Source: a virus | DNA length: 64,000 bases | IMG/VR virus record: IMGVR_UViG_3300035181_002522 | Span: 100,332-164,331 of that record | Reading direction: 5' to 3' (one strand) | In this document: positions 681 through 64,000 of the stretch, one piece after another | Numbering within the stretch: the stretch's first letter is position 1 | How the letters are laid out: the number at the start of each line of letters is the position of its first letter | Position numbers and translations under genes: made by a program | Notes under the pieces: model-generated | Databases searched by the model: none | Told to the model about the DNA's origin: nothing | What the model saw: the letters and a program-made list of their open reading frames with translations, nothing else

Positions 681-702
681 CACAAATTAAATAGGAGAAA
701 TA

Positions 703-1080: not shown

Positions 1081-1081
1081 C

Positions 1082-1573: not shown

Positions 1574-1819
1574 ATGCCATACATACCTATAATTTCAAAC
1601 CTACAACAAACAACAACACCTGTTGTTCAAGTCGACGATGGTCAGCAATGTTCAGCTGGTTCAATTGAATGTACTCCTTGCATGTTAGCTCCAATTTTAT
1701 TGGGCATTCTTGTTTTAGGAATTGTATTTTTAGTGTTAGCTAATTCACTTCAAGGCTTTACATTTAAACGTAAAGCTAAAAAATCTATTCAGAAGCCATT
1801 TGATTTGACAAAACATTAA
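1574..1819 (+). CDS. Hypothetical membrane protein
   Basis: One hydrophobic segment followed by a basic tail. Confidence 0.5.
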   Translation: MPYIPIISNLQQTTTPVVQVDDGQQCSAGSIECTPCMLAPILLGILVLGIVFLVLANSLQGFTFKRKAKKSIQKPFDLTKH

Positions 1820-1863
1820 TCACTTTCCAAAATAAATATCATTTTTTGCAATGGAGTAAAATA

Positions 1864-2244: not shown

Positions 2245-2313
2245 AACAAGTTGTTTACAATAAAGAGAAAAGGTGTTAAAATTTATCAACCTTCAAATAA
2301 ATCGCGAGGAAAA

Positions 2314-2754
2314 ATGTCTCTATTAGAACAAATTAGAGCAGCTTCATTGGCCGCTCGTAAAGCAAAGTCAGCTAACGCAAGCTTTTTAATTACCTTGTTG
2401 GGTGAGGCAACTCGTCCTGGTAAAGACAATGGTAATCGCGAGAGCACTGATGAAGAAGTGTTTAAGGTCATAAACAAATTTAAGGCCGGCCTTGATGAAA
2501 GCATTAAGGCAATGCAAGCTAGAAATGACGAAGCTGGCCTTCAAAAGTTAAATAATGAAATGGCCGCGTTAACTCCATTTTTGCCACAACTTTTAACAGA
2601 ATCAGAACTTCGTAACATTATTGAAGCGCTCATTTCTGGTTCACCAAGTCCTAGCATTGGTCAAATTTTTGGCGCTTTGAAAAAATCATATGGTGGCAAA
2701 TTTGATGGAGAAATGGCCTCAGCAATCATTAAAGAGACATTAAGTCATGGCTGA
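2314..2754 (+). CDS. GatB/YqeY domain protein
   Basis: MSLLEQIRAASLAARKAK...FLPQLLTESEL...GKFDG YqeY-like pattern; GAGG RBS. Confidence 0.8.
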   Translation: MSLLEQIRAASLAARKAKSANASFLITLLGEATRPGKDNGNRESTDEEVFKVINKFKAGLDESIKAMQARNDEAGLQKLNNEMAALTPFLPQLLTESELRNIIEALISGSPSPSIGQIFGALKKSYGGKFDGEMASAIIKETLSHG

Positions 2755-2956
2755 AAAACCAGATGGTAAGTTAGTCTTTATAGTTGCTCTTATCGGCGGC
2801 GTAATAATTGCAGGTGCATCATATCAGGTCATTCATTCGTTTAAACCTAACCCTGACCCACAGTGTCTTGCGGCTTTAGTCGTAACATCAGATAATTGGT
2901 GGGAGCAATCGCCTGAACCAGAATGTACGCCAAACTTTGTTGATAATAAACACTGA
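2747..2956 (+). CDS. Hypothetical membrane protein
   Basis: Overlaps previous stop; one TM segment. Confidence 0.55.
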   Translation: MAEKPDGKLVFIVALIGGVIIAGASYQVIHSFKPNPDPQCLAALVVTSDNWWEQSPEPECTPNFVDNKH

Positions 2957-3074
2957 CTTTGTAAGCTCATGGGTAGAGCTCCCATACGAGGGTAGGAGTT
3001 GGTTCAATTCCAATGAAAGAATGGTTCCCGTAAATCCGCAATGGGGAGAGTAGGTTCGAATCCTACCAAAGTCA
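2955..3074 (+). ncRNA. tRNA-like RNA with two T-arms
   Basis: Acceptor GACTTTG/CAAAGTC, D-arm GCTCATGGGTAGAGC, T-arms GTTGG-TTCAATT-CCAAT and GTAGG-TTCGAAT-CCTAC. Confidence 0.65.
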
Positions 3075-3096
3075 ACAATATTGAAGAGAAAGAAAT

Positions 3097-4502
3097 ATGC
3101 AAAATGCGTTAAATTATATCTACATGGGCATTATCGCGTCAATTATTCTTATTGTAATTGGCTTTTTTGGCTATAAGCTTTACGAACGAGATGAATTCTA
3201 TCGTAAATGCGAAGATAAAGATGGCACGGTAATTAAAAATGAACTTGACGAAAGTTTTTGCTTTAGGCCATCGCAAATAGGGGAACACACTTGATAAATC
3301 AATACTTTGATTTATGGCCTAATGAAACTGGTCTACCATTTCATATTTTTATTGGAGATATGAAATTAGTTGAAGGTAATCCACAGTTTTTAGCTCCAAC
3401 TGAAGAGCAGTTAGCTCAAGGCAGTTTCAATCTTAAAGATTGCCAAGTTGTTAAGTTAACCACTGGTATTGAATGTATTTCTACGACTCGCGATATGCAA
3501 TTACAATTTTTCTTAAATGAAAATTGCCAACAGCTTATGAAATATTGTACTGGTGAAATTTCGATTGTTGAATTAAAACAGACACTTTCTACGGAGTATG
3601 TTACATGGCTTTAGCAGATTTAAATACACCAGCAGTTCAAAAAATCCCACTTGACCAGCGCAAAGAAATTTGGCTCAAAATTTGGGCAGCTTTAGTTACA
3701 ACTGACGGTCTATCTTCACCAATCTTCATTTCGGAATGGGCAGATGAATGTTTAGCTCATTATGCCGAACGTTTTTATGCTACTGATGAAGGCGTTCAGA
3801 ATTTATTCGAAGAAATTGATGAAGCTAAAAATGTCTAAATACGTCATCTTTGGAGTTATCATTGGAACCATCATCGGTGTTTCTCTGGGATTAAATCATT
3901 ATCAGTTCAAGCTACAAGCTGATAAATTTACCAAAGAATGCCATGCTCAAAAGGGTGTCGTTATAGAAGAATATGACACTGGTAATTTACTCTGTTTTCC
4001 GGCCGATGCGTAATTTATATAAATTAGTTAAAGTGCTTGCATTCATCGCGGCATTTATTGTGTTTACGTTTATCATTGGCATGGTTAAATATCAATACGA
4101 TGTAGCTGAATATCGAGATAAAATTAATTGTTCAGCTGCTGGTGGTGCCTTTAAGCTTAATGAGCAGACAGGTGAAAAAAAATGTGTAGTTTCTACAGGA
4201 GAGTTACAATGGAAAAAATGATGTTGGTTTTATTGCTAGCTTTTCCAATGCTAGCCCAAGCGAGTTCGCCGAGCTTTTATATTCAAGCCCCAGGTTTTTC
4301 CTTTGGCTATTCTCAACCAAGTTGGTATCCAGTTCAACCATACCCATACGCCGTTGTGCCACGATATCCATATCCACAGCAATATAACATTGTAGTTCCG
4401 CCAAGGTTTGAATACCACGAATATCGTCAATGGCAAGATCGACACGATGATTATTACGAGCACGGTCATCACTTTGGTCATAGAGATCGCGACTGGCGTT
4501 AA
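3097..4502 (+). CDS. Run of six small hypothetical genes (3097-3294, 3291-3614, 3605-3838, 3831-4013, 4006-4221, 4209-4502), several membrane or secreted
   Basis: Abutting or overlapping ORFs; TM segments with paired Cys; last has a signal peptide and a Pro/Tyr/His-rich tail. Confidence 0.6.
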
Positions 4503-4509
4503 AGAATAC

Positions 4510-4583
4510 TGGCCTATAGCTCGAAGGTCGAACAGGCGGTTCATAACTGCTCGGTCCTGGTCCAATTCCATGCAGGCCCACCA
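4510..4583 (+). tRNA. tRNA-CAT (Ile2/Met), partly degenerate
   Basis: Anticodon arm GCGG-TTCATAA-CTGC; GGCCT/AGGCC acceptor; ACCA end. Confidence 0.75.
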
Positions 4584-4592
4584 ACTATAAAC

Positions 4593-4648
4593 CCATACAG
4601 TTTTACTTTTTATCATAAATACAAATTTAATAAAGTAAAACTGTATGG
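4593..4648 (+). promoter_or_regulatory. Late promoter inside a start-codon-sequestering hairpin
   Basis: Perfect 17-bp IR CCATACAGTTTTACTTT/AAAGTAAAACTGTATGG covering ATG 4645; TAAATA in the loop. Confidence 0.7.
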
Positions 4649-5505
4649 ATTATCAGAAGCATTATTCCGCTCTTATTGAACGGGCCAAAAATAGAATTAT
4701 TGATGGGTATACTGAACAACATCACATTATTCCAAATTGCTTTTTCAAAAACTCTTCTAGACGGAATACAAAACATTCGTCATTTGCTGGTTGGTTAGAT
4801 GGTAATCGGGATGATAAATCGAATTTAGTAAATTTGACACCAGAAGAACATTATGTTGCTCATCAATTATTAGTTAAAATATATCCGAATAATTTAGCAC
4901 TGTTATTTGCTGCTAATATGATGGGCAATACTAGAAAGGGAAATAAATGTTATGGTTGGTTAAAAAGAAAGCATTCTGATCGAATGAAAAATTTACCAAT
5001 TGAAATTAGATTAAAAATTTCAAAAGCTTTAAAAGGAAGAAAAGTTTCACCAGAAACACGTCAAAAAATTAGTAAATCTAAAAAGATCAATAATGCGATT
5101 AGAAAAAAATTGATATCAGAAGGCGTATTAGAAAAGCCTACACGCAAAACTTTCACACATTCTGAAGCCACAAAACTTAAATTTTCTAAAAATGCTAAAC
5201 AGTTACATCCAAATGGGCCCTTTTTTGGAAAAACTCATACTGAAGAAACAAAGCAAAAAATAAAACAAAGTAATACTAATTTTGTTCATACTGAAGAAAC
5301 AAAAGCTTATCTTTCTGAAATTAGAAAAGGTGAAAATAACCCAATGTTTGGCTCTATTGGGACGATGGCAGGAAGAACAGGAAGTTCACACCCAGCGTTT
5401 GGATCAAAATGGTATGTTAATACTATTACTGGAGAAATTAAAAAATTTCGACCTGAAGAAATAAATACTTTGTGTATAACATGGAAACCAGGAAGAAAAT
5501 TATGA
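4645..5505 (+). CDS. HNH homing endonuclease with NUMOD3 repeats
   Basis: YTEQHHIIP...NLVNLTPEEHYVAHQLL; HTEETKQKI and GENNPMFG motifs. Confidence 0.9.
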   Translation: MDYQKHYSALIERAKNRIIDGYTEQHHIIPNCFFKNSSRRNTKHSSFAGWLDGNRDDKSNLVNLTPEEHYVAHQLLVKIYPNNLALLFAANMMGNTRKGNKCYGWLKRKHSDRMKNLPIEIRLKISKALKGRKVSPETRQKISKSKKINNAIRKKLISEGVLEKPTRKTFTHSEATKLKFSKNAKQLHPNGPFFGKTHTEETKQKIKQSNTNFVHTEETKAYLSEIRKGENNPMFGSIGTMAGRTGSSHPAFGSKWYVNTITGEIKKFRPEEINTLCITWKPGRKL

Positions 5506-46343: not shown

Positions 46344-47002
46344 TTAATTCTCATTGTTAATTTCATAAAAACATTTCCAATTTTTATGATGGTTGCGTTT
46401 GCCGTTAGCTACGGCACACATTGCACTTGTATTTAATTTTTCTTTTTTACAAAAATCAGAAATACCTTTTATAATAAATTCAGCACCATTTAGATCAATA
46501 ATTTTATAAGTTTTTTGAAGACTTTGTTTATGTTTTAATCTATTGTCCGGAGAATTAAATTTAGAATTTGGATCATTCCAGTAACTTTTTATCATATTTT
46601 TCCAATTTTCTTGGTATTCACTAGAATTATAAATTGATTGATCATTTTCCCAATGAAGTTTCATTGCCTCTGACAATTTGGCTTTTACATCTAAGGTCAT
46701 GCTTTCTTGAATAGTCTTTTTTAACTTTGTTCTATACTCTTCGGAATTATAAGCATGATCTTTATTTTCTCGATGTTTTTGTTTATATTCAGCAGATTGA
46801 TATTTGGTATTTTAAAGTGATGTTGTGTCCAAGCTCTTTTGCCATGACCTTTACCAATATAGTAAGGAGTTCCAGCTTTTGCTGTATTACTATCGTTTTG
46901 GCGAACATACGCATAAATATAAAAAATAGGCTGTCCATTATCGTGCTTTTGATTCTTAAAGCAAAGACCAAGAGCTTGATAAATACTTGATGACGCCGTC
47001 AT
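46344..47002 (-). pseudogene. Disrupted GIY-YIG homing endonuclease
   Basis: FYIYAYVR...PYYIGKG in one frame; NUMOD1-like tail (FCKKEKLNTSAM...HKNWKC) in another. Confidence 0.7.
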
Positions 47003-47054
47003 TATTATCACTTTGAAAATATAATAATGATATTTATTGATTACCTGTAAGGAA

Positions 47055-47768
47055 ATGAAATTGTATGAGGTGCTTGACCAGTCCCATGATGTTAATAGGT
47101 GATTAGCACGATATGAAAGAAAAATACATAATTTAACATCTGAAACTTTTGAGCCAGGAGTATTCAATGTCAATGAAGTCTCATTTACTAACATTGCAGT
47201 ATTCAAAAAACCAATTCCAGTTCATTTTCGTACTGTTAAAATTTATTCAGTTCGTGAATGTCCAAACGTTACTAGTCTAACCCAACTGAATGTAGAAAAA
47301 ACAGATTCATTAAGTGTGCAAAATTCTGGCATTACTGATTGTGAAGGTTGTCCGGAAGCTAATATCTTAAGTTTAGATTATAATTTTAAGTTAAATTCTC
47401 TAAAAGGAATAACTCCAACTGTGACAACTTTGAATTTATTGAACTGTACTGCATTACATACGATCGACGCCGATTTGCCAAATTGTACAACTCTTAGGCT
47501 ATCTTTTTCTGGTATTGAAACGCTTTCAGGAATTCATAAACATTGTCCTAAGCTTGAATCAATCAATTTAACTTGGTATGATAATCTTAAAGCTGGATTG
47601 CTTGGATTACTAAGAATTCCAAGTTTAAAATTAGTTGAAGCAAGTACTGGCCCTGATGAGCTACTTATTGCAGTTGGACTTATCAATAAACACTTAAAAG
47701 ATAAAAATATTGGTGCGTGTCAAACAGATTTATTTAAAAGCGGATTAAAAGAATATGCTAAGCTTTAA
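47055..47768 (+). pseudogene. LRR array paralogue 2 with in-frame TGA at codon 16
   Basis: AAGGA RBS, ATG 47055, TGA 47100-47102, then open frame aligning with paralogue 3; C-terminus CQTDLFKSGLKEYAKL. Confidence 0.75.
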
Positions 47769-48516
47769 AGAGTATTTAAAAGAGGCAGAATTGACAAGAG
47801 ATGAAGTCTTACAATGGGCTCATGAAAATGATAATAAATTTCCACAGTCTATTATTACTGACGTTAATGTTGGGAAGGAACCACCTTTTTTAATTAGTGT
47901 TCACACAGTAAATTTTAATAATTTAAAAATATTCAAAAAGCCATTACCAGTTCAATTTGGTTACATTAAATTCTATTTGGCTAATGAGTGCGAATATCTA
48001 ACTGATTTAAGTCAATTGAGAGTACAAACGGCTGATTCACTTCAAATAAATGGAACTGCCATAACATCATTCAAAAATTGCCCAGAGATATTTGCCTTAA
48101 GAGCTCAAAAACTAAGAAAATTAACTACATTAGAAGGTATTTCTAAAGAAGTTAATAAAGTTGAATTAATTGGCGCTGAAAACTTAACATCAATTGATGA
48201 TGAAATGCCAAATGTAACAAGCTTTTTAGCTCCAGTCTGTGGGATTACTTCGCTAAAAGACATTCATAAGTATTTGCCAAAATTAGAAGTATTACAAATA
48301 AATTCTAATCCAATTGTTGCATCTATTTTGGGGTTATTGAAATTACAAAATCTACGAATGATGATATTTGAAAATTCTCCCAATTCACCAGCACCAAATG
48401 ATTTTATTGCGGCAATGAGAATAGTTAATGAATTTGTTATGGCTAAAAATTACAATATCTCAGAATGTCAAACCCGCTTGTTTAAGGCAGGTTTGAAAGA
48501 CTTTGCAAAACTTTAA
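47755..48516 (+). CDS. LRR array paralogue 3
   Basis: MLSFKEYLKE start; LRRs; C-terminus CQTRLFKAGLKDFAKL. Confidence 0.88.
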   Translation: MLSFKEYLKEAELTRDEVLQWAHENDNKFPQSIITDVNVGKEPPFLISVHTVNFNNLKIFKKPLPVQFGYIKFYLANECEYLTDLSQLRVQTADSLQINGTAITSFKNCPEIFALRAQKLRKLTTLEGISKEVNKVELIGAENLTSIDDEMPNVTSFLAPVCGITSLKDIHKYLPKLEVLQINSNPIVASILGLLKLQNLRMMIFENSPNSPAPNDFIAAMRIVNEFVMAKNYNISECQTRLFKAGLKDFAKL

Positions 48517-50060
48517 CCCATTAAGAAACACACATTACCTACTGGGTTTAGGTTACCTGCCTCAAAATCATTAATTTGTCGTTGCAGTTCAGTAAACATT
48601 GTTTCGGCCTTAGTAATGAGCATATCGCCATTTAGAGCTAAACCACCATTTGCGCCAGGCAAGTTAGCGTATTTGCTTCTTATCATACCCGTCATCTCTA
48701 AGCATTTTGCAAATGCCCAATCCCTTATCCATGGCTCACACCATCTATCAGTAAGCAACTCTTGTTCAGTTCGCTCCATATAGCACTCTAAAACTACACG
48801 TTCATCTTTATACAACTTTCTTAACATCTTTAATTCTCGTTTTGCTTCATCCCATTCAAATACCAATGTGCCAGCAAAGATTTTTTCAAACTCTTCAGCC
48901 ATTGAGTTAGCTAAATGAATTGACAAAATATCAATCATTGAGCCATAAAAGAATTGATTATAGAATATTTGAGCATATACTCCATTATCACCACCAAGTA
49001 CATTCATACCAATCGTACTAACACGATGAATCTTTTGAATGTCGACAATCTTATCAGTTCCAGACACTGGGTCATTAAGAAAGTAAGTCGACTGACCTGC
49101 TTTTAAAGTAAACAAAATATGACGACGATTATAAGCGCTATCTGAACGCCTTCTAAATTCGGCTAAAGCAATATTAATTGCAGTTTCAAAATTTTCTTCT
49201 TTTAACTCTGTACAAACCGCAGGATAGCCAAGTTGCGCCTTAATTGAATTTACTAGCTTGGCCCTAGAATCTAAATCACCAGTTGTTCCAACACCAATTT
49301 TTTCATAGGTTGGTGTTCCAACTTCTTCAGTATTTGCCGTCTTCCATTGAGTTCCAGTCCAAATATATAGAATATGAATATCAGTTCGATAGAAAAAATC
49401 ACCTGGATTTGGAGTTGTTGGGAATACTTTACCAGAGATTATTGTGTTGCCTGCCGCTCCATCTAATGTAGCTGAACTTGAAACATTTTGAGTAGCATTT
49501 GCTGGAATCCAAATTGCTCCATTCCACATTTGAATTGAATTTGTGGTTGGATTATAATAAACATAACCAACAGCTGGATTAGTCGGAGGAGTTGAATTTC
49601 TTGGAATATTGCCTGTATACCCTTGAACTTCAACGGATAATGGTGCTGCTTCTAAAGCATATGATTTGCAACCATATTGATAATACTGCAGTACGTTAGA
49701 GCAAGGATGTAAACTAGCATAATAAATTAGGTTTGGGTCGGCACCTGTCACTAAAACTGAGGTTGCGGTTAATGAATCTCCGAACGCCCCATATACTGCA
49801 TTGACAACCTGGGCTCCTCCAATAGTATCAGCTGGAGCTGTTAAATCGGTAGAAGCAGTATAACGAACTGAATCGACCGGTTGATGGTCAGCGGTAAGTT
49901 GCTTGGCTGCTACGACAATAACATGCCCATTATATGCCGCTGGAGTCGCTGGTAAATTCCAAGTTAGGGTAAATGAAGTTGGACTTGTTCTAACAAGCGA
50001 AAGTTGAATTGTTTGTGCTTCAGCCCAAAGGTTGGCCGTAGTGATTGGTAAATCGGTCAT
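48513..50060 (-). CDS. Neck protein (T4 gp13-like) with N-terminal extension
   Basis: IKAQLGYPAVCTEL...WIRDWAFAKC...GMIRSKY..LPGANGGLALNG. Confidence 0.85.
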   Translation of the reverse strand: MTDLPITTANLWAEAQTIQLSLVRTSPTSFTLTWNLPATPAAYNGHVIVVAAKQLTADHQPVDSVRYTASTDLTAPADTIGGAQVVNAVYGAFGDSLTATSVLVTGADPNLIYYASLHPCSNVLQYYQYGCKSYALEAAPLSVEVQGYTGNIPRNSTPPTNPAVGYVYYNPTTNSIQMWNGAIWIPANATQNVSSSATLDGAAGNTIISGKVFPTTPNPGDFFYRTDIHILYIWTGTQWKTANTEEVGTPTYEKIGVGTTGDLDSRAKLVNSIKAQLGYPAVCTELKEENFETAINIALAEFRRRSDSAYNRRHILFTLKAGQSTYFLNDPVSGTDKIVDIQKIHRVSTIGMNVLGGDNGVYAQIFYNQFFYGSMIDILSIHLANSMAEEFEKIFAGTLVFEWDEAKRELKMLRKLYKDERVVLECYMERTEQELLTDRWCEPWIRDWAFAKCLEMTGMIRSKYANLPGANGGLALNGDMLITKAETMFTELQRQINDFEAGNLNPVGNVCFLMG

Positions 50061-50153
50061 AATATAACCCTTAAAACATTAATTAATAGAGTTATTTATG
50101 AGGCCAAAATAAATAACTGTAGTTAACTCACACGCAGTATAGGACTCCTAACA

Positions 50154-51311
50154 ATGAAAATAGCAGAATTATTCGAAAATTATGAAACTGAAACCTTAGA
50201 AGAACACCTTGGCAACTTAGCCGTTGTTGATAAAAAATTCTTAAAGCTTTTAAAAACAGCGGTTGAATATAAGTACAATGGCAATAATGCACAAATGCAA
50301 AGCAAGTATGTCCAGCGTATGCCAGTTTACTTAGGTTCAAAATCAAAAGTCGATTCATACGAAACGAAATCTGGAGCTGAAGCTTATCGTCAATTAGTTG
50401 AAGATGATACCGCAAAAGCTATCGTCATCAACCATGATACTGAACAGGTTTTTGTGGCATTCAAAATTCCAGCTGACAATAGTAGAGAAAATTTTGCTTA
50501 TCTTTGGACTGCCGACATTGTTCATTTGCTTGGTCACTCAGAGCATAATGAACAATTTGAAGAAGCTAAAGCCAAGCTAGAAAAAGCAAAAATTAAAGCT
50601 TATGATAGTCCAACTGATGGTATAGTTCGTGGGAATGCTAAAGAGCTCTACGCAGCATTGACAACAATTTTTAAACTTTCTAAAGAGCTTGGACATAAGA
50701 CCGTTGATTTACATGTTATCCATGTTGATGAAGAAAGAGCTGCTACTAAAATACAGCGAGCTGCACGTAAGAAAACCCCAAACTGGTTTGAGCAAATTCC
50801 AGCTGAAATTCCAGTAAGATTAAAAAAAGATAAAGAGTTTTGGAGCAAATATGCTAAAGATGCTTTACAGTCTCGTTTGATTGATTTTAAGACGAACAAT
50901 GCTAAGGAAGCAAATACCCCAGAAGAAATGTTTAAATTGATACAAAACCATGGGTTTTTGGATAGAATAAAAGTGAATGGTTTTGTGTACAGGGTTGATT
51001 CAAGTAATTTACAATTTGACAGATTGATTAAAGCAGCTCGTGGAACAGCGGAAGAAAAAAGCCGTTATAAAGATGATAATTATATCGAATATGGTATGGA
51101 TTATCTTAATTCTGAAAATGACATAAAACAAGCTAAAATTAAAAAGCAGCTTGAAATAATGACAAAAGGTGATAAAGACCGTATGAAACAGCTTGCTAGT
51201 CAATATTTACCACCTTACAAAATTAAAGTTTATTTAAAATTAGATAAAGCTTCTATCGTTGTTGACCATGTAGATGCTGATAAGTGGATTCGCAAATTAA
51301 ATATCAAATAA
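50154..51311 (+). CDS. Late protein, possible internal head protein
   Basis: TAAATA at 50110; MKIAELFE...TLEE propeptide-like N-terminus. Confidence 0.7.
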   Translation: MKIAELFENYETETLEEHLGNLAVVDKKFLKLLKTAVEYKYNGNNAQMQSKYVQRMPVYLGSKSKVDSYETKSGAEAYRQLVEDDTAKAIVINHDTEQVFVAFKIPADNSRENFAYLWTADIVHLLGHSEHNEQFEEAKAKLEKAKIKAYDSPTDGIVRGNAKELYAALTTIFKLSKELGHKTVDLHVIHVDEERAATKIQRAARKKTPNWFEQIPAEIPVRLKKDKEFWSKYAKDALQSRLIDFKTNNAKEANTPEEMFKLIQNHGFLDRIKVNGFVYRVDSSNLQFDRLIKAARGTAEEKSRYKDDNYIEYGMDYLNSENDIKQAKIKKQLEIMTKGDKDRMKQLASQYLPPYKIKVYLKLDKASIVVDHVDADKWIRKLNIK

Positions 51312-51890
51312 TAAATTTAAACAAAAACCTTTATATCTAAATTTCCATGCTTAAGAATTGTTCAGCAAACAGATTTTTCTTGGGAGTTAAGTACACTTAT
51401 TGTCGCCGATAAAGTATTAAAAGACTATTTCGGCGACAATATTGAAATCATAATTAATGATGAAATGACTTACATTTACGTAGATTATTTCTTTGATGAA
51501 TTTAACTGTTCGTCAAAGAAATTAATCTCCATTGAAATACAGGTACAAGAATTATTGAGATTGAACAACTGTTCATCTTCTATTATTTTCAATGGCATGC
51601 CGGCTGAAAAGTTTAAATTGGATTCTTGTCGAATGCTTTCTATACACATACCGGATGAGCCAACGTCAATTAGTAAATTGAACGAATGTAACGTACTAAC
51701 CATTATTAATGCTCATCAGATATTAGGTGGTGTTTTAAGCATCTTGAAGATTAAAAATTTAGTCTCATTTACTGGTAATCGAACTGATTTTCCATGGATT
51801 GAAATTATTCAGCAATATGATTCATCAACAATTTCACAAGCGTAAACTGCTCTCTTTAATACTAGGTTTGGAAAGTTAATAACTCTATGA
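51310..51890 (+). pseudogene. Array paralogue 4 with nonsense codon in the C-terminal tag
   Basis: GGVLSILKIKNL motif; ISQA*TALFNTRFGKLITL* with TAA at the conserved Gln; start lost. Confidence 0.7.
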
Positions 51891-52084
51891 CTATAACCTA
51901 TGTCCCGTTCTGTTTCATGCCAGGGCATACAATTAATGCAATTGTAAGGGCAAAGAACTTTTATGTTGAAGGTGAGAAACTTGAAGAGCTAATCCAATTG
52001 TTTAATGAAGCAAATGATTTTGAAGTTCCTAAATTAGGTAAAAGTTACTTGGTGCCAGTAGATGACGACCTTAAACCAACTTAG
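51887..52084 (+). CDS. Small LysM-like protein
   Basis: PGHTINAIV...N...PKLGKSYLVP. Confidence 0.45.
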   Translation: MTITYVPFCFMPGHTINAIVRAKNFYVEGEKLEELIQLFNEANDFEVPKLGKSYLVPVDDDLKPT

Positions 52085-52736
52085 TCATGTAGATTATCCG
52101 TGTCTTAATATTATTTTTTCGTTGACTGAACGAAATTGTATATCTTATACTATGCAACCGTTGGGCGCAATCATTAAATTGATTGATGAAACTCTAAAAA
52201 AAGAAATTCCTAACTATAAATTCTCCGTTGGATTTGATGGTTTAGATAATTTAAGAGTTTTATATCATTTGACTCGTGAAAATGAGTGTGATTCTATCAA
52301 TTTGACTGATGTGCGAGCTGAACTTGTCAATGTGATTTATAAATTAATGGAAACATTATTTGTTGATGTAGCTGATTTTACGATTAAAGATACTTACATT
52401 TCTATGTTTTCTATTGTTCAATATAAAATTAACTATGAAAAAATAGTTTTCTTTGCTTGTGGTATGCACGGAATTTCACTTTCTGGTTTGCATAATTTTA
52501 TCGACTGCACCGTGCTTAAAATAATAACTCCTGGTAATGTCACTGGCGGAGTTTTATCGTTGTTGAAAATACCAAGCCTTCAAGCAATGTCTTTCGACAT
52601 CTTCAATTATGATGATAATCCCGAACTTATGCAGTGGACTTCTATCATTTCTTCAGAGCTTGCAGGAGAAAAAAATGTGGCAAGAGCTCAAACTCAATTG
52701 CTACGCGCTGGTCTAAAAAAGTTCGCTACTCTATAA
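52062..52736 (+). CDS. Array paralogue 5
   Basis: ISLSGLH, GGVLSLLKI, C-terminus AQTQLLRAGLKKFATL. Confidence 0.85.
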   Translation: MTTLNQLSHVDYPCLNIIFSLTERNCISYTMQPLGAIIKLIDETLKKEIPNYKFSVGFDGLDNLRVLYHLTRENECDSINLTDVRAELVNVIYKLMETLFVDVADFTIKDTYISMFSIVQYKINYEKIVFFACGMHGISLSGLHNFIDCTVLKIITPGNVTGGVLSLLKIPSLQAMSFDIFNYDDNPELMQWTSIISSELAGEKNVARAQTQLLRAGLKKFATL

Positions 52737-52793
52737 CAATTCGTTAATTTCTATTAAATATTCAATTAGCAATACACACAAGTCTAATTGGAT

Positions 52794-53450
52794 ATGTCAA
52801 TCTCATTCAAACAATTTTTAACTGAAGCTGGCGAGCCAGAGGTATCTTTAACAATACATTTTGCTCCAGGCGAATCAAAATTCAAAATACTAACAACAGA
52901 AAAAGATGAGCGTAGAGATGAACTTGAAGCTGCCATTAGTCAACTCGGCTTTAAAGTTGATGTCAACTATTTTGGTGCTGACGCTATTGAATTAAGTGTA
53001 TTAATGCTTAAAGAAGAATTTTATACTGATCCAGTTAAAATACAAGCCTTCATTAATGAAATAAAACAATATTGCGAATTGCATTTTGGCTCATCAAAAA
53101 GACCTATCATTAATGATGAATCTTCTTGGTCAATTTTAAAATTTACGACACTTCCTTCTAAATTAGTCGTCTGGGATTATATTGAAGTTGCTCCACACAT
53201 CACTAAATCAATATCTTTGTCTGGTATATATAAAGTACTTCAACCAAAAGAAACACTACTTATTGCACATTTACATGCAATTGATGATTCTATATTAGGA
53301 CTGTTTAAATTTGATAAAGAAATTGACATTTATCTAAATGGTAATAGTACCTGGTCTACAATAGTTAGAAAATATCTAAAAACTCGAGATATTACAAAAT
53401 GTCAAACCGAACTCATGAAAAATGGACTTAAACAATATGCAAAACTTTAG
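52794..53450 (+). CDS. Array paralogue 6
   Basis: MSISFKQFLTE; C-terminus CQTELMKNGLKQYAKL. Confidence 0.88.
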   Translation: MSISFKQFLTEAGEPEVSLTIHFAPGESKFKILTTEKDERRDELEAAISQLGFKVDVNYFGADAIELSVLMLKEEFYTDPVKIQAFINEIKQYCELHFGSSKRPIINDESSWSILKFTTLPSKLVVWDYIEVAPHITKSISLSGIYKVLQPKETLLIAHLHAIDDSILGLFKFDKEIDIYLNGNSTWSTIVRKYLKTRDITKCQTELMKNGLKQYAKL

Positions 53451-54123
53451 GGAATATTACGAATCAGAAGTAGAATATGGAAAGCTCTTTTATAGCATCC
53501 AATTCTTTGTTAATGTCAAATTACAATCTTTAACTGCTGCTGCCGGACAACGTGAAAATTTAGCAGTAATAAGAAACCAAATTAAAAATGCCCTTAAAGA
53601 GGTTGGTTTAGCAAGAGATACTTTTAGCTCGAATGATACTAATAAGCAATCTTTTTTTACACTAGATGTAAAGTTAGAAAATAAAAAATGGTCAAAGGCT
53701 GAATTACTAGCAGTTAAAGAGAAAACAATTAAGGCAATAAAATCTGTTCCGCAATTCAAAGACAAAGAATTTGAATTTGATAGCGACTGTATAGTTGTCA
53801 CTGGGACTTTGCATCCTAGTTCTAGTATTGAATGGGATAATGTTGATTTGGTTTATACTACTAATGAAATTTCTTTAGTTAATATTGACAAACAACTTAA
53901 AAATGTCAAACACTTGAAGATATTTTTATCATCATCTGTTTCCGTATTAGAAGGTGGTTTAGGTATCTTAAAGATGACATCTTTAAAGAGCTTCATTATT
54001 GAACTGCCAAGACCACCAGAATGGTTGAAAATAATAAAAGCACATTTTGACGCTGATAAAAATATTAGTAAAGCGCAAACTGAATTATTTAAAAACGGAT
54101 TTAAAGAATATGCAAAGCTTTAA
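53437..54123 (+). CDS. Array paralogue 7
   Basis: MQNFREYYESE; C-terminus AQTELFKNGFKEYAKL; 14-nt overlap with previous gene. Confidence 0.88.
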   Translation: MQNFREYYESEVEYGKLFYSIQFFVNVKLQSLTAAAGQRENLAVIRNQIKNALKEVGLARDTFSSNDTNKQSFFTLDVKLENKKWSKAELLAVKEKTIKAIKSVPQFKDKEFEFDSDCIVVTGTLHPSSSIEWDNVDLVYTTNEISLVNIDKQLKNVKHLKIFLSSSVSVLEGGLGILKMTSLKSFIIELPRPPEWLKIIKAHFDADKNISKAQTELFKNGFKEYAKL

Positions 54124-54751
54124 GCAATTCCTACAAGAAGAAATGAAACCAAGTGTCGTATTATTTTTAGAGCTAAGTATTAATCTTGCACTCTCAGAAA
54201 ATGCTAGTAAGTGGGAAAAAATGATTAAGACTTTATTGACTCCCAAATTCAAAGTTCAAAAAGTAACACTAACTGGTCAAAATAATAGTGTGGTGGTGCT
54301 CTTAGATGAAAGCAATAAGCATTTTACATCAGCAGAAGTTTATAAAATAGCAAAAGAAGTAAAAGAAGAATTAATTTATGATGCATCTATTGGCAGTAAA
54401 TTTCCAGAAGCTCCACTCTCTGAAATTAAACTAATAGTCAAAAATACTTTACCAAAAAATGTGACGTTAGAATTTAATACAATCTTATTGAATTTTCATG
54501 AAGCAACAAATGTTTCGTTATTGGGAATTCATGATCAATTAAAAACTGACAATGTTCACATAATTGATGTATCATCTGTTACTTCAGGTGGTTTAGGCTT
54601 AATGAAATTTAAAAAGCTGACGATTAACACATCTGGAAAGCAACCTAGTTGGGTTACCATTATAGAAAACTGCCATAAAGAAGGCAAATCGATTGCAGCG
54701 TGTCAAACAGAATTAATGAAAAATGGATTTAAAGAATATGCAAAGCTTTAA
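54110..54751 (+). CDS. Array paralogue 8
   Basis: MQSFKQFLQEE; C-terminus CQTELMKNGFKEYAKL; 14-nt overlap. Confidence 0.88.
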   Translation: MQSFKQFLQEEMKPSVVLFLELSINLALSENASKWEKMIKTLLTPKFKVQKVTLTGQNNSVVVLLDESNKHFTSAEVYKIAKEVKEELIYDASIGSKFPEAPLSEIKLIVKNTLPKNVTLEFNTILLNFHEATNVSLLGIHDQLKTDNVHIIDVSSVTSGGLGLMKFKKLTINTSGKQPSWVTIIENCHKEGKSIAACQTELMKNGFKEYAKL

Positions 54752-55499
54752 GCAATTTCTTGTAGAAAATAAAATGCCAGTTAATTCAGCGCCTTGGCAT
54801 TTAAAAACTGAAGAAGAAGTTGCTAAATTTGTCATTGATAGAAATTTACATGAAGATGGTTTCCATTCTACTTTTATTCGAAATGAAGATGGCTCATATG
54901 ACATAAAGCAATCTATAACTTTAATGCTCAATGATAATTATTTTGTAGACATTCCAGGTGGTGGGAAAGGTTTACCTTTCCCTTTTCATAGATGTCGCGA
55001 TTTTTATATTGGTGGCAATATCACAGATTTGACTGGTTTCCCTCAACACTTAGATAAAATCACCACGGTACTAATCAATGCGCCAAAGTTGAAATCATTA
55101 AAGCCTGTCCAAATTAAAACTCCAATTAACAGCATATCATTTAACTGCAATCACCTTGAAGAGTTTGGCGCATCAATTGCTATGGTTGACAGTGTTTATT
55201 TTACTGCAAATTTGATACAATTAGCTACAATGGATATTATAAAAGGTTTTACTTGCATAAATAAATCAGTTACGTTTAGCAATGAACCAGCATTCGAATC
55301 ATTTATTAAACATACTCTTACTTGGTGTAAATTAAAAGACTCGTCTGGTCATCGACCAGCATTTCATACTCTTGGCATTGCTGGCTCTACAGATGCATTT
55401 AGTGCACTTGATGTTATTAATGCGAATAGAGATAAAAACATTTCACAGCTTCAAACTTTCTTATTAAAAAACGGTCTTAAAGAATATACAAACTTATAA
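54738..55499 (+). CDS. Array paralogue 9
   Basis: MQSFKQFLVE; C-terminus LQTFLLKNGLKEYTNL; 14-nt overlap. Confidence 0.88.
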   Translation: MQSFKQFLVENKMPVNSAPWHLKTEEEVAKFVIDRNLHEDGFHSTFIRNEDGSYDIKQSITLMLNDNYFVDIPGGGKGLPFPFHRCRDFYIGGNITDLTGFPQHLDKITTVLINAPKLKSLKPVQIKTPINSISFNCNHLEEFGASIAMVDSVYFTANLIQLATMDIIKGFTCINKSVTFSNEPAFESFIKHTLTWCKLKDSSGHRPAFHTLGIAGSTDAFSALDVINANRDKNISQLQTFLLKNGLKEYTNL

Positions 55500-59687: not shown

Positions 59688-60224
59688 ATGGCAAAAGGAA
59701 GATTTGTCCCAAAACACCCAGAAAAATATTTGGGAAATCCAAACAATATCATATTCAGAAGCTCTTGGGAGCTCTCATGTTGTAAATTTTTTGATAGCTC
59801 GAACGCCGTAACTCGTTGGGCTTCTGAAGAAATTGCGATACCATATGTCAGTCCGTTAGATGCCAGAATACATCGCTACTTTCCAGATTTTATCGCTAAG
59901 ATAACCGATTCTAGTGGAACGACCGACACTTGGTTAATTGAGGTTAAACCACTTCATCAAACTGATATGAAATATGCTAAAAATGTTCAACAAAAGATGG
60001 AGGTGGCAAAAAATGAAGCAAAGTGGAAAGCAGCAACAAACTTTGCTGCTTTAAATAATATGAAATTTAAAGTGCTTACTGAATTAGACATTTACGCTTT
60101 AGACCCTGATAGAGGAAAAGTAAAGCGAGCAAAACCTAGTAATGCGGCAAAAATTAAAGCTAGGAAGCCAAGAGCTAAAACGATAAAATCAACTACGGTT
60201 AGACCCAAGGAGAGTAAAAAATGA
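59688..60224 (+). CDS. Head completion nuclease (T4 gp4 / TnsA-like)
   Basis: GRFVPKHPEKYLG..IIFRSSWE; WASEEIAIPY; YFPDF; IEVKP; NEAKWKAA. Confidence 0.93.
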   Translation: MAKGRFVPKHPEKYLGNPNNIIFRSSWELSCCKFFDSSNAVTRWASEEIAIPYVSPLDARIHRYFPDFIAKITDSSGTTDTWLIEVKPLHQTDMKYAKNVQQKMEVAKNEAKWKAATNFAALNNMKFKVLTELDIYALDPDRGKVKRAKPSNAAKIKARKPRAKTIKSTTVRPKESKK

Positions 60225-60682
60225 CAACACTGACACACCCATTAGAAACTGTGTTTAATATAGCGCCAGGTTCAACAAAAAATTTACCTGCAGAGTATGA
60301 ATCCCAAAATCTTGCAGAATATACTGAGATTCCTGCTGAGGTAGTTGCCCAGGACCATAAGGATGACGCTGAGGACATTGATATTAATGATAAGATAGAA
60401 ACCATTTATGAATTTGCATTGACTGCCTATGAGAACCAGACCGCCTTTGCCGAGATAGCAGAACCACGCTATGCTGCTCGTAATGCTGAAGTAGCAGCTC
60501 AATACTTAAATGCAGCGTTAAGTGCGGTGGCATTGAAGTCAAGAAACAAGAGTGATAAGCGTAAAAGCAAGCAGTTTATTCCGTTTAACACGAACATCTC
60601 AAATAGCAATGTAGTTGTTACTGATCGAAACAGTATCATGCAAATGATCGCTGAAAAGAAAAAAATGCAAGAAGGTTCATAA
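60221..60682 (+). CDS. Probable terminase small subunit (T4 gp16-like)
   Basis: EPRYAARNAEVAAQYLNAA and NSNVVVTDRNSI; position after gp4. Confidence 0.55.
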   Translation: MTTLTHPLETVFNIAPGSTKNLPAEYESQNLAEYTEIPAEVVAQDHKDDAEDIDINDKIETIYEFALTAYENQTAFAEIAEPRYAARNAEVAAQYLNAALSAVALKSRNKSDKRKSKQFIPFNTNISNSNVVVTDRNSIMQMIAEKKKMQEGS

Positions 60683-61710
60683 TGATAAGCTTTAAACAAT
60701 TTTTAAATGGGGTTAAAGAACAAATGAAGATATGTAATTTATTTGAACAGGAAATAGTTTATCATAATGATATTACGGTTCCAAAGTCATGTAAGTCGTT
60801 GTTCGAGTTAGTAAATTTGTTTCCTGGCTATCAGCCCGGCTGCAAAGTTAGTGGTAACTTTTCTTGTCATGGCTGTACATCTTTGACATCTCTAGAAGGA
60901 GCACCTAGTTCAGTTGGCGGTAACTTTTCTTGTTGGGATTGTACATCTCTGACATCTCTAGAAGGAGCTCCTAGCTCAGTTGGCGGTAACTTTTATTGCC
61001 ATCGCTGTACATCTCTGACATCTCTAGAAGGAGCACCTAGTTCAGTTAGTGGTGACTTTTTTTGTGGTGATTGTTCATCTTTGACATCTCTAAAAGGAGC
61101 TCCTAGTTCAGTTGGCGGTGACTTTTTTTGTGGTGATTGTTCATCTTTGACATCTCTAAAAGGAGCTCCTAGCTCAGTTGGCGGTAACTTTTCTTGCGCT
61201 GACTGTACATCTTTGACATCTCTAGAAGGAGCACCTAGTTCGATTAGTGGTGACTTTTCTTGTTATGGCTGTACATCTTTGACTTCTCTAGAAGGAGCTC
61301 CTAGTTCAGTTAGTGGTAACTTTTTTTGTTATGGCTGTAGATCTCTGACATCTCTAAAAGGAGCTCCTAGTTCAGTTAGTGGTAACTTTTCTTGTGCTAA
61401 CTGTACATCTTTGATATCTCTAGAAGGAGCACCTAGTTCAGTTGGCGGTAACTTTTCTTGTCACGGCTGTAGATCTCTGACATCTCTAGAAGGAGCTCCT
61501 AGTTCGATTGGCGGTGACTTTTCTTGTTATGGCTGTACATCTTTGAGAAAGCCAATCTTAAGTTTACTCAAAATAAAAAAATTAAAAAAAATAATCTACG
61601 ACAATGCGGATGTGCAAGCTATAGTAAATGGGCATATGCAAGACAAAAATATCGCAGCGTGTCAAACTGAATTAATGAAGAACGGATTTAAGGAATATGC
61701 AAAATTATGA
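60682..61710 (+). CDS. Tandem 22-aa LRR protein, copy 1 (11 CxxC units)
   Basis: GNFSCxxCTSLTSLEGAPSSVG repeats; MISFKQFL start; array C-terminal tag. Confidence 0.92.
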   Translation: MISFKQFLNGVKEQMKICNLFEQEIVYHNDITVPKSCKSLFELVNLFPGYQPGCKVSGNFSCHGCTSLTSLEGAPSSVGGNFSCWDCTSLTSLEGAPSSVGGNFYCHRCTSLTSLEGAPSSVSGDFFCGDCSSLTSLKGAPSSVGGDFFCGDCSSLTSLKGAPSSVGGNFSCADCTSLTSLEGAPSSISGDFSCYGCTSLTSLEGAPSSVSGNFFCYGCRSLTSLKGAPSSVSGNFSCANCTSLISLEGAPSSVGGNFSCHGCRSLTSLEGAPSSIGGDFSCYGCTSLRKPILSLLKIKKLKKIIYDNADVQAIVNGHMQDKNIAACQTELMKNGFKEYAKL

Positions 61711-62064
61711 TGAATACCAAAGCTGATATGACACATGATGAATATTTCACATTACCCGTTAGTAATCATTGTTGGTAATTTTGATAACAGCAACATGGTA
61801 GAAGCTGAAGAAGTGTATATCTCTAAAATAAAAATTAATTTACAAGGAATACAAAAGATGTTAAGATGTTCTAAGATTAAAATTTTGGACGCAAGAACAA
61901 TTGAAGCTGGAGCTCTATCGCTTCTAAAAATTCAAGGTTCACAACATATTTCATTTGGTGGAAGTACAAATAATAGACCAGAATGAACTAAGATTATTAT
62001 GAATCACTTGAATGTAGTGGTATGTCAAATTGAATTACTAAAAATGGGGTTAAAGAACAAATGA
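61707..62064 (+). pseudogene. Decayed array paralogue, spacer copy 1
   Basis: INLQGIQK, AGALSLLKI and CQIELLKMGLK fragments with frameshift and stops. Confidence 0.7.
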
Positions 62065-63518
62065 AGATATGTAATTTATTTGAACAGGAAATAGTTTATC
62101 ATAATGATATTACGGTTCCAAAGTTATGTAAGTCATTGTTCGAGTTAGTAAATTTGTTTCCTGGCTATCAGCCCGGCTGCAAAGTTAGTGGTAACTTTTC
62201 TTGTTATAACTGTACATCTTTGACATCTCTAGAAGGAGCTCCTAGTTCAGTTGGTGGTAACTTTTCTTGTTGGGATTGTACATCTCTGACATCTCTAGAA
62301 GGAGCACCTAGTTCAGTTGGCGGTAACTTTTCTTGTTATAACTGTACATCTTTAACATCTCTAGAAGGAGCTCCTAGTTCGATTAGTGGTAACTTTTCTT
62401 GTTATAACTGTACATCTTTAACATCTCTAGAAGGAGCTCCTAGTTCGATTAGTGGTAACTTTTCTTGTTGGGATTGTACATCTCTGACATCTCTAGAAGG
62501 AGCACCTAGTTCAGTTAGTGGTAACTTTTCTTGTGCTAACTGTACATCTCTGACATCTCTAGAAGGAGCACCTAGTTCAGTTAGTGGTGACTTTTTTTGT
62601 TATGGCTGTACATCTTTAACATCTCTAGAAGGAGCACCTAGTTCAGTTGGCGGTAACTTTTCTTGTTATAACTGTACATCTTTAACATCTCTAGAAGGAG
62701 CTCCTAGCTCAGTTGGCGGTAACTTTTCTTGTTATAACTGTACATCTTTAACATCTCTAGAAGGAGCTCCTAGTTCGATTAGTGGTAACTTTTCTTGTTG
62801 GGATTGTACATCTCTGACATCTCTAGAAGGAGCACCTAGCTCAGTTGGTGGTAACTTTTCTTGTTATGACTGTAGATCTCTGACATCTCTAGAAGGAGCT
62901 CCTAGTTCAGTTGGTGGTAACTTTTTTTGTTATGGCTGTACATCTTTAACATCTCTAGAAGGAGCACCTAGCTCAGTTAGTGGTAACTTTTCTTGTGCTA
63001 ACTGTACATCTTTGACATCTCTAGAAGGAGCACCTAGTTCGATTAGTGGTAACTTTTCTTGTTGGGATTGTACATCTCTGACATCTCTGACATCTCTAGA
63101 AGGAGCACCTAGTTCGCTTGGTGGTGACTTTTCTTGTCATGGCTGTACATCTCTGACATCTCTAGAAGGAGCACCTAGCTTGGTTGGCGGTGACTTTTCT
63201 TGTCATGGCTGTACATCTTTGACATCTCTAGAAGGAGCACCTAGCTTGGTTGGCGGTGACTTTTCTTGTCATGGCTGTACATCTTTGACATCTCTAGAAG
63301 GAACTCCTAGTTCGATTGGTGGTGACTTTTCTTGTCATGGCTGTACATCTTTGAGAAAGCCAATCTTACGTTTACTCAAAATAAAAAAATTAAAAAAAAT
63401 AATCTACGACAATGCAGATGTGCAAGCTATAGTAAATAGGCATATGCAAGACAAAAATATCGCAGCGTGTCAAACTGAATTAATGAAGAACGGATTTAAG
63501 GAATATGCAAAATTATGA
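62061..63518 (+). CDS. Tandem 22-aa LRR protein, copy 2 (18 CxxC units)
   Basis: Caps nearly identical to copy 1; seven extra repeats plus a TSL duplication. Confidence 0.92.
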   Translation: MKICNLFEQEIVYHNDITVPKLCKSLFELVNLFPGYQPGCKVSGNFSCYNCTSLTSLEGAPSSVGGNFSCWDCTSLTSLEGAPSSVGGNFSCYNCTSLTSLEGAPSSISGNFSCYNCTSLTSLEGAPSSISGNFSCWDCTSLTSLEGAPSSVSGNFSCANCTSLTSLEGAPSSVSGDFFCYGCTSLTSLEGAPSSVGGNFSCYNCTSLTSLEGAPSSVGGNFSCYNCTSLTSLEGAPSSISGNFSCWDCTSLTSLEGAPSSVGGNFSCYDCRSLTSLEGAPSSVGGNFFCYGCTSLTSLEGAPSSVSGNFSCANCTSLTSLEGAPSSISGNFSCWDCTSLTSLTSLEGAPSSLGGDFSCHGCTSLTSLEGAPSLVGGDFSCHGCTSLTSLEGAPSLVGGDFSCHGCTSLTSLEGTPSSIGGDFSCHGCTSLRKPILRLLKIKKLKKIIYDNADVQAIVNRHMQDKNIAACQTELMKNGFKEYAKL

Positions 63519-63812
63519 TGAATACCAAAGCTGATATGACACATGATGAATATTTCACATTACCCGTTAGTAATCATTGTTGGTAATTTTGATAACAGCA
63601 ACATGGTAGAAGCTGAAGCTGAAGCTGAAGCTGAAGCTGAAGCTGGAGCTCTATCGCTTCTAAAAATTCAAGGTTCACCACATATTTCATTTGGTGGAAG
63701 TACAAATAATAGACCAGAATGAACTAAGATTATTATGAATCACTTGAATGGCAACAAGAATGTAGTGGTATGTCAAACTGAATTACTAAAAATGGGGTTA
63801 AAGAACAAATGA
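63515..63812 (+). pseudogene. Decayed array paralogue, spacer copy 2, with (GAAGCT)6
   Basis: Near-identical to 61707-62064 apart from an internal replacement and a 9-nt indel. Confidence 0.7.
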
Positions 63813-64000
63813 AGATATGTAATTTATTTGAACAGGAAATAGTTTATCATAATGATATTATTGTTCCAAAGTCATGTAAGTCATTGTTCGAGTTAGTAAA
63901 TTTGTTTCCTGGCTATCAGCCCGGCTGCAAAGTTAGTGGTAACTTTTCTTGTTATAACTGTACATCTTTGACATCTCTAGAAGGAGCTCCTAGTTCAGTT
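63809..64000 (+). CDS. Tandem LRR protein, copy 3 (partial)
   Basis: MKICNLFEQEIVYHNDII... runs off the window. Confidence 0.88.
   Translation, partial: MKICNLFEQEIVYHNDIIVPKSCKSLFELVNLFPGYQPGCKVSGNFSCYNCTSLTSLEGAPSSV

Follow-up and report, generated by a model that had tools for sequence, protein, structure and literature searches.

Tandem leucine-rich repeat (LRR) genes, numbering two to three or more, follow directly after the small terminase gene on a T4-type jumbo phage contig, and the genome that hosts them is that of a giant T4-like phage. The explanation that we consider best, and in which we place moderate confidence, is that these are tandem leader-tagged genes with decayed mini-copies between them, whose products would be head-cargo binders changed by recombination and selection. 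As read from sequence, the genes are part of a large unstudied family of T4-type jumbo phages and the amplification of their LRR arrays is recent. A first-pass annotation of the window (the whole stretch of 64,000 nucleotides analysed here) had drawn attention to the repeats but did not place the LRR genes in this large phage family with its leader tags.

Gene layout, repeat units and predicted fold

All features described below lie on the plus strand. The small terminase-like gene (60221..60682; phrog_445, E 1.6e-4), a search with which found relatives, has a stop that overlaps the start of LRR copy 1 at 60682. Copy 1 (60682..61710; 342 aa) is composed of two tandem leaders (60682..60753), an N-cap, an array of 11 units of 66 bp or 22 aa (60844..61569), the final unit continuing into the C-cap, and a C-terminal module (61546..61710; LRKPILSLLKI ... 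CQTELMKNGFKEYAKL) common to at least seven other window genes. Its leaders, MISFKQFL.. (IP-like) and then MKICNLFEQE (Alt/gp24-like), each contain an (L/I)xE site, and their succession on one protein is odd for a simple tag. Copy 2 (62061..63518; 485 aa) has the leader MKICNLFEQE, an N-cap, 18 units (62181..63377) and the C-terminal module, with a triplication of the 9-bp ACATCTCTG at 63072-63097 giving a 3-residue TSL insertion in unit 14. Copy 3 (63809..64000) is an open frame interrupted by the contig end. Spacer 1 (61711..62060) holds a decayed mini-member of the same gene family, consisting of an ORF at 61735-61986, an in-frame TGA and then a ..CQIELLKMGLK.. remnant; in its homologue, spacer 2 (63519..63808), (GAAGCT)7 at 63609-63650 replaces the middle. 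The T4 late-promoter motif TATAAATA was found 5 times against 7 expected, which is no excess, and shorter TAAATA boxes stand upstream of some operon-first genes yet are not enriched.

The description of three LRR copies, two of them complete with 11 and 18 units, agrees with the ORFs present and with a count of units on the anchor G[ND]F.C..C. TRF places 66-bp arrays at 60846-61546 in copy 1 (10.6 copies, 85% matches) and at 62183-63354 in copy 2 (17.6 copies, 88% matches). The caps, reported as near-identical, share 97.5-98.3% DNA identity between copies, and mean unit DNA identity is 0.86 here compared with 0.70 and 0.49 in relatives' genes.

The LRR solenoid proposed from the letters is a high-confidence prediction on the basis of an AF2 model (pLDDT 92.6, pTM 0.84), which places a strand at F-x in each unit, and of VIA-align matches between that model and solved LRR proteins. 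VIA-align was used because a Foldseek search with the whole model returned LRR proteins throughout but with weak E-values and low TM-scores. The VIA-align matches to InlF, Roco, SDS22, RPP1, SspH2, YopM and InlJ reach Z 16-19 over 255-293 residues, with SspH2 at Z 18.6 (24% identity) and YopM at Z 17.6; SlrP scores Z 15.9. At the sequence level, Pfam LRR_5 scores 20.3 bits against copy 2 (cut-off 27.7), and copy 1 matches no LRR model. The unit V-[GS]-G-[ND]-F-x-C-x-x-C-x-x-L fills the L positions with Phe/Cys and the N position with Cys, and none of the 11 + 18 units departs from V, G, F, C, C and L at the LRR-defining positions. The "novel HCS" LRR class motif VxGxLxLxxN(x)xL allows exactly these residues, Phe/Cys at L and Cys at N positions (PMC8181103), and by motif the window units belong to this published VxGxLxLxxNxxL class, from which they differ in lying in phage genes with phage-specific caps and in being unusually homogeneous. 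Relatives with Asn have the 11-residue segment form and a 21-residue period. We also considered whether the CxxC ladder binds zinc or iron-sulfur and dropped the idea, since most relatives have Asn in place of the second Cys and the two cysteines occupy positions in the LRR core.

We judge it very unlikely that the genome holds one copy and that the copies and unit counts are an assembly artefact, drawn from a tangled short-read graph or from strung-together strain variants. For an artefact, the last site at which copies 2 and 3 differ lies exactly 127 bases before the contig end, the bases that follow it (63874-64000) being identical to 62126-62252, and the two C-caps and spacers are joined by an exact repeat of 180 bp, such that the link between copies 2 and 3 rests on the short-read graph. 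Strain variants do exist (L015, 99.65% identical), and the exact product of copy 2, with its 18-unit array, is not on record in any other assembly. Against an artefact, the copy 1 product recurs exactly in an independent assembly from sample 3300035182, with 1 DNA mismatch in 4,031 bp, and exact repeats inside an array reach 122 bp at most. In addition, spacer 1 is bounded by a C-cap and an N-cap, which requires two or more genes to lie side by side in some genome. Breaks at the repeat borders are found in three assemblies; those in two other assemblies lie either where the repeated N-cap begins or immediately beyond the C-cap, where true repeats should cause them.

Site-specific variation and module recombination

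Variation among units is concentrated at unit positions 9-10, the residue pair enclosed by the core cysteines, where column entropy is 2.1 and 1.75 bits; elsewhere it is at most 1.0 bits, and 11 of the 22 unit columns show no variation, bearing out the almost invariant scaffold described earlier. The nine dipeptides named by the annotation (HG, WD, HR, GD, AD, YG, AN, YN and YD) are precisely the set found in the units. Positions 9-10 are also the most variable across 961 units from 120 relatives. As for the ligand face, the variable residues do lie on x positions of the conserved segment, and the word "concave" may be applied to them in so far as it follows from the motif register and from strand positions in the model.

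At codons 9-10, pN is 0.48, or 2.8 times the scaffold pS of 0.17, and scaffold pN is 0.021, for a scaffold pN/pS of 0.12. This argument for selection leans on scaffold pS because the pair of hypervariable codons has a high pS of its own (0.485, few sites), and gene conversion could depress the scaffold value. At codons 3, 5, 7 and 12, pN is about equal to pS, as would be seen if the arrays were a neutral repeat expansion in dispensable genes, their variable positions reflecting relaxed constraint and no selection for diversity. The decayed family members in the spacers would suit such an expansion too, as would the fact that the variable positions are x positions that vary in all LRRs. We consider it improbable, given frames that are open across 1.0 and 1.5 kb, the conserved scaffold and hot-codon excess noted above, and a copy 1 that is identical in two samples.

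The units are mosaic. Four gametes were found at 59 of 105 site pairs among units, exact blocks of 122, 91 and 61 bp are shared within and between copies, and multi-unit blocks are reused, in agreement with the earlier observation that the same unit types recur in different orders. A copy from a sister sample (L051) has been rearranged: units are inserted and deleted, their order differs, and one type, HQ, is new. This pattern is the expected product of homologous recombination between 66-bp repeats. The proposal of combinatorial shuffling therefore holds as far as mosaic units, recurring blocks and rearrangement are concerned, and is not supported as a VLR-like or programmed system.

Module-like reuse of unit types in differing orders is what programmed diversification would also yield, whether by VLR-like cassette assembly or by a diversity-generating retroelement (DGR) rewriting the arrays, and to this we assign hardly any probability. 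No RVT_1 match to a reverse transcriptase was found in the 164 kb contig (~46% of the genome), nor was a template copy for a retroelement found elsewhere in it, and substitutions among units involve all four bases, with no adenine specificity; a DGR was rejected on these grounds. VLR-type somatic cassette assembly is not supported either: the LRR ORFs are complete in the germline with both caps, no donor or flanking partial cassettes were found, the spacers holding a decayed small paralog, and copy 1 is stable across two samples. As neither a reverse transcriptase nor donor cassettes nor any other diversifying machinery turned up in the 164 kb, ordinary recombination together with selection is the best reading. 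Under this reading, 66-bp units, and likewise gene copies, would exchange sequence through unequal crossing-over and gene conversion, ordinary recombination that alters the arrays while the binding positions are under diversifying selection; no dedicated diversifying machine would be involved.

The paralog family, its leaders and candidate head cargo

Family members start with a leader resembling the capsid-targeting tags of T4, continue with an LRR-like body and end in a constant C-terminal module (about 55 residues) with the motif ..LLKI...CQxELIxxGLxEYAKL. A profile of this module matched at least 2,489 clusters; among the best 150 of these, almost every match ends within 0-2 residues of the protein end. 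The C-terminal 70 residues are modelled as a small strand-helix module (pLDDT 81), for which no PDB chain scored above Z 2.9. Besides the LRR copies, the window contains at least seven further members with the same C-terminal module (47316-47768, 47755-48516, 52062-52736, 52788-53450, 53422-54123, 54047-54751 and 54723-55499) and a leader-bearing 385-aa protein (50154-51311). The paralog runs extend over 47316-55499 and 60682-64000, and neck, tail-tube and terminase genes surround them. Relatives have similar tandem runs in their structural/packaging region, with 9, 7, 9 and 13 paralogs in L016, L025, L056 and L057, respectively, and L051 has 5 paralogs between the LRR array and terL. Searches with non-array paralogs against Pfam, PHROGs and the ESM Atlas gave sub-threshold LRR_4 matches only, and tblastn of a non-array paralog against cultured phages gave no match, Ralstonia phage RsoM2USA being reached only with a more diverged relative's paralog. 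The exact N-cap pattern had no match in viral contigs, and an N-cap scan of metagenomes gave three distant matches only.

Leaders of the forms M.SFKQFL.E and MKI.ELFE are found here on 14 ORFs, a GNAT enzyme among them, and are like the starts of T4 proteins (NC_000866) over a span of 8-10 residues only: MKTYQEFIAE in IPII/III, MKTFKEF in IPI, MELITELFDE in Alt and MAKINELLRE in gp24. Of the family representatives, 79% have an [LI]xE site within their first 12 residues, compared with 4-10% in later stretches. The phage genome encodes a gp21-type protease (PF03420, E 4.5e-21) and a gp23-type capsid protein (PF07068, E 2.8e-94), in which L-M-E aligns with the T4 gp23 L-T-E65 cleavage site. RsoM2USA ORF89 (28.56 kDa, start MKTFKQFLSE) matches the C-terminal profile (hhalign probability 97.9%, E 4e-13) and is an abundant virion protein, one of ten major LC-MS/MS bands from purified virions (PMC8504454); these data establish presence in virions for a relative's protein and are silent on head location, clipping and ejection. 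Taken together, the likeness of the leaders, family membership and the virion protein of RsoM2USA suggest that the LRR proteins are probably head cargo delivered into the host.

Under such a mechanism, the leader would act like a T4 capsid-targeting sequence, the LRR protein would be built into the prohead, and cleavage by the gp21-type protease after (L/I)xE would remove the leader. The mature protein would then enter the host along with the DNA, where its variable LRR face would bind a host target, most plausibly one related to defence or takeover. More tentatively, T4-type jumbo phages may possess a heritable repertoire of LRR binders, packed into the capsid and co-injected with DNA, that neutralise or hijack host proteins, for example those of defence, with one member quickly re-tuned through 66-bp modules and selection on two contact residues per unit.

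The genes could instead encode parts of the virion surface (tail, baseplate or head decoration) that bind host receptors, the C-terminal module serving to dock and the LRR face setting host range. Receptor-binding proteins usually combine a constant docking end with a variable body, the genes lie among those for neck, tail tube and terminase, the relative is a virion protein, and a weak tblastn match falls on a cyanophage "putative tail protein". We nevertheless regard a surface role as unlikely, as the leaders match T4 tags for head loading and clipping rather than tail adaptors and the same leader occurs on the GNAT enzyme and other unrelated ORFs. Likewise, a fibre tip is less readily reconciled than bulk cargo with the 10-20 small paralogs that each genome has and with a band visible by Coomassie staining.

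If these proteins are indeed head cargo, at least ~2,500 clusters in uncultured T4-type jumbo phages would represent first-minute effectors on a programmable binding scaffold, and the window arrays would reveal how fast LRR binders can be re-tuned. The family would then offer concrete candidates for the study of phage counter-defence, starting with cultured RsoM2USA, and a natural example of LRR specificity evolving through module recombination. Should the cargo role prove false, the locus would still provide a clean case of recent concerted repeat amplification and site-specific diversification in a phage gene.

Comparison with known systems

The T4 internal proteins IPI, IPII and IPIII and Alt carry a capsid-targeting sequence and are clipped by the gp21 protease (PMC3012670). 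The window proteins are like them in their N-terminal 8-10 residues (MKT[YF][QK]EF.. and MELITELFDE compared with M.SFKQFL.E and MKI.ELFE), in the (L/I)xE site, in the type of protease and capsid, and in forming a diverse multigene set with the tag alone in common. Beyond the leader there is no sequence similarity: the window bodies are LRR solenoids with an extra C-terminal module, paralogs are far more numerous in the window's phage, and loading and clipping are here read from leader likeness.

SspH2, SlrP and YopM are bacterial short-LRR effectors injected by type III secretion. Their LRRs are likewise short (20-22 residues), they rank among the best structural matches to the window model and, if the window proteins are cargo, they would share with them the delivery of LRR binders into a target cell. 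They differ in their caps and delivery route, and the cysteine ladder is in the window proteins' core; the window LRR proteins have no Pfam match to an NEL E3 ligase or other enzyme domain.

Among cultured phages, the closest family members are RsoM2USA ORF88-90, which are in tandem, are annotated as hypothetical, and have leaders (MKTFKQFLSE, MSFKTFLES and MKLHEISE), an LRR-like body and the C-terminal module. They number only three, and their repeats are diverged and irregular, without a homogeneous 66-bp array. WXB48033.1 of Vibrio phage VB_VaC_SRILMA, a hypothetical protein, has eight near-identical short units of the same sequence class in the Asn form that the 21-residue relatives also have, is 57% identical to copy 2 and varies at the same x positions as the window units; it is a single gene adjoining a DnaB-like helicase, without leader, N-cap or C-terminal module.

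The VLRs of jawless vertebrates arise somatically, when donor cassettes are added to an incomplete gene. They resemble the window genes in their LRR modules, in variable residues at the x positions of the conserved segment and in a diversity that is partly modular, whereas the window genes are complete, inherited and stable between samples. If the more tentative reading given above is true, an injected LRR repertoire would be the virus-side counterpart to the LRR repertoires of immune receptors.

The LRR locus and its assembly

The 164,331-bp linear viral contig, which ends with the window as its final 64 kb, is 46% complete according to CheckV and carries T4-type genes for the capsid protein gp23, the prohead protease gp21, a tail tube, a gp2-like protein, the small terminase (terS), and gp15. 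Together with the presence of terS relatives on contigs of 340–390 kb, this gene content indicates that the contig derives from a T4-type jumbo phage. An ORF on the minus strand at window positions 46721–47206, containing ..FYIYAY..PYYIGKG.., resembles by eye the GIY-YIG homing endonuclease motif, with no Pfam match at E 0.01.

The LRR locus begins at the terS stop codon, with copy 1 at 60682–61710 (342 aa), a 350-bp spacer, copy 2 at 62061–63518 (485 aa), a 290-bp spacer, and copy 3 from 63809, which is cut at base 64000. TRF reports 66-bp arrays with 85–88% matches, and motif anchoring yields 11 units in copy 1 and 18 in copy 2, the same counts as those in the first-pass annotation. The two spacers are homologous, each holding a mini-member of the LRR gene family with an in-frame TGA (window 61735–62062 and 63543–63810; ..NNRPE-stop-TKIIMNHL..CQIELLKMGLKNK-stop), and in spacer 2 the middle of the mini-member is lost, with (GAAGCT)7 in its place. 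Because TGA is a normal stop here, being the stop codon of copy 1, these mini-members look like decayed genes.

Copies 2 and 3 stop differing exactly 127 bases before the contig ends, and a 180-bp exact repeat links both C-caps and spacers; these features resemble breaks that repeats induce in an assembly graph. Within an array, no exact repeat is longer than 122 bp. Assembly of sample 3300035182 gave copy 1 again, with a single mismatch over 4,031 bp, on a contig that stops 2 bp past the copy 1 stop codon, and a contig from a 99.65% identical strain in another sample (L015) ends 26 bp into copy 1, in the opening bases of the repeated N-cap. Since spacer 1 sits between a C-cap and an N-cap, at least two LRR genes must adjoin. 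The count of 18 units in copy 2 is provisional, as its exact product has no record elsewhere.

Repeat unit, predicted fold, and selection

The unit consensus is S-V-[G/S]-G-[N/D]-F-[S/F/Y]-C-x-x-C-[T/S/R]-S-L-T-S-L-[E/K]-G-A-P-S, with 11 of the 22 columns invariant. Entropy reaches 2.1 and 1.75 bits in the two x columns and at most 1.0 in every other column, and the nine dipeptides previously listed for the x columns are precisely the set present. The motif is that of a "novel" LRR segment already published, VxGxLxLxxNxxL, whose L places are open to Phe or Cys and whose N place is open to Cys (PMC8181103). Relatives with Asn for the second Cys have the segment in its 11-residue form and a period of 21 residues; the two unit cysteines are therefore core ladder residues. 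A metal site at these cysteines was rejected, given the Asn in most relatives and the core positions that both Cys occupy in the LRR segment.

An AlphaFold2 model (pLDDT 92.6, pTM 0.84) places a short strand at F-x in each unit. Foldseek matched LRR proteins only, with weak scores, while VIA-align gave Z values of 16–19 over 255–293 residues to InlF, Roco, SDS22, RPP1, SspH2 (24% identity), YopM, and InlJ. The hot residues directly follow the predicted strand, at positions 8–9 of the LRR segment, and this register, combined with general LRR knowledge, would put them on the predicted "concave face".

Among 26 core units, pN was 0.48 at codons 9–10, the two x positions (pS 0.485, from few sites), 0.18 at codons 3, 5, 7, and 12 (pS 0.17), and 0.021 at the remaining scaffold codons (pS 0.17). 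The scaffold is under purifying selection, and hot-codon change is 2.8 times that at scaffold silent sites. Across 961 units from 120 relatives, variability is likewise highest at these five positions (3.0–3.5 bits), so the variation follows the ordinary LRR pattern, here at an early stage after amplification. DNA identity between units averages 0.86 in the window vs 0.70 and 0.49 in the genes of two relatives, and none of the other genes compared has units as alike in DNA.

Turnover of the 66-bp units

Two blocks in copy 2, of 122 and 91 bp, recur exactly at distances of five and six units, an exact 61-bp block is common to copies 1 and 2, and all four gametes were found in 59 of 105 informative-site pairs. 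A contig from a sister sample (L051) begins within an array of copy 1-type units in a different order, with a new HQ type and a C-cap carrying three changes; this array is an additional copy of that locus, or else an allele. Downstream of it (638–5474) come a further four family members, then a 274-aa protein and terL, the gene for the large terminase, which places the paralog array between terS and terL.

The first-pass annotation had proposed that 66-bp modules are shuffled combinatorially. What it observed holds, and shuffling itself is supported by the recurring blocks, the four gametes, and the reordered L051 units. A programmed system resembling variable lymphocyte receptors is rejected, as the 164,331-bp contig contains neither a reverse transcriptase nor a template copy, and the LRR genes (copies 1 and 2) are complete, whole ORFs. 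Homologous recombination is very active in T4-type phages, and in its ordinary form it is enough to explain the module turnover.

A paralogous family with T4-like leaders

At least seven other window genes share the C-terminal module ..LLKI...CQTELMKNGFKEYAKL, and relatives have runs of 7–13 family genes, often directly after terS or near neck genes. A family profile built from the last 70 residues matches 2,489 clusters (formed at 50% identity), with E values no higher than 1e-10 for 952; in nearly all of the 150 best matches listed, the matched region reaches the last residue of the protein or stops a residue or two short of it. Most members begin MK[LIV]xELFE or MxxFKxFLxE, and only a minority have the cysteine-type array. 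At paralog junctions at window 47755, 53437, 54110, and 54738, a gene end overlaps the next start: the DNA ..GAATATGCAAAGCTTTAA encodes E-Y-A-K-L-stop and, one base on, M-Q-S-F-K. This dual coding physically couples the C-terminal tail to the leader of the next gene at these junctions. Also inside the paralog cluster is a 385-aa protein (50154–51311) that starts MKIAELFENYE, lacks the C-terminal module, and has no Pfam or PHROG match.

In T4 (NC_000866), IPII and IPIII start MKTYQEFIAE, IPI MKTFKEF, Alt MELITELFDE, and gp24 MAKINELLRE, and the internal proteins have only the capsid-targeting sequence in common (PMC3012670). Fourteen ORFs in the window's genome, one of them encoding a GNAT acetyltransferase, carry one of two T4-like leaders. 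Within the first 12 residues, [LI]xE occurs in 79% of family representatives vs 4–10% in later windows of residues, and the capsid protein retains L-M-E at the T4 gp23 Glu65 cut position. The cultured Ralstonia phage RsoM2USA has three tandem family members, one of which, ORF89 (start MKTFKQFLSE, 28.56 kDa, family profile match at 97.9% probability), accounts for one of the ten major bands identified by LC-MS/MS in purified virions (PMC8504454). Taken together, the leaders, [LI]xE, the capsid cleavage site, and this virion band make virion association of the family proteins likely and head loading with leader clipping plausible. These proteins form a large, unannotated, probably capsid-loaded phage family, of which the window holds a recently amplified, recombining LRR member.

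Outside the window, a minus-strand GNAT acetyltransferase gene (PF00583, 28.7 bits; G000:C1:30466–31134, locus L058:967–1635) has the leader MTSFKEYLQE, and the next two ORFs have MISFKQFL.. and MKITELFET. These ORFs are candidates for an enzyme cargo like T4 Alt. In the cultured Vibrio phage VB_VaC_SRILMA (196 kb), the 211-aa protein WXB48033.1 (L001:6037–6672) adjoins a DnaB-like helicase and has neither the family leader nor the C-terminal module, but its eight near-identical short units are of the same class as those of the window, in the Asn form.
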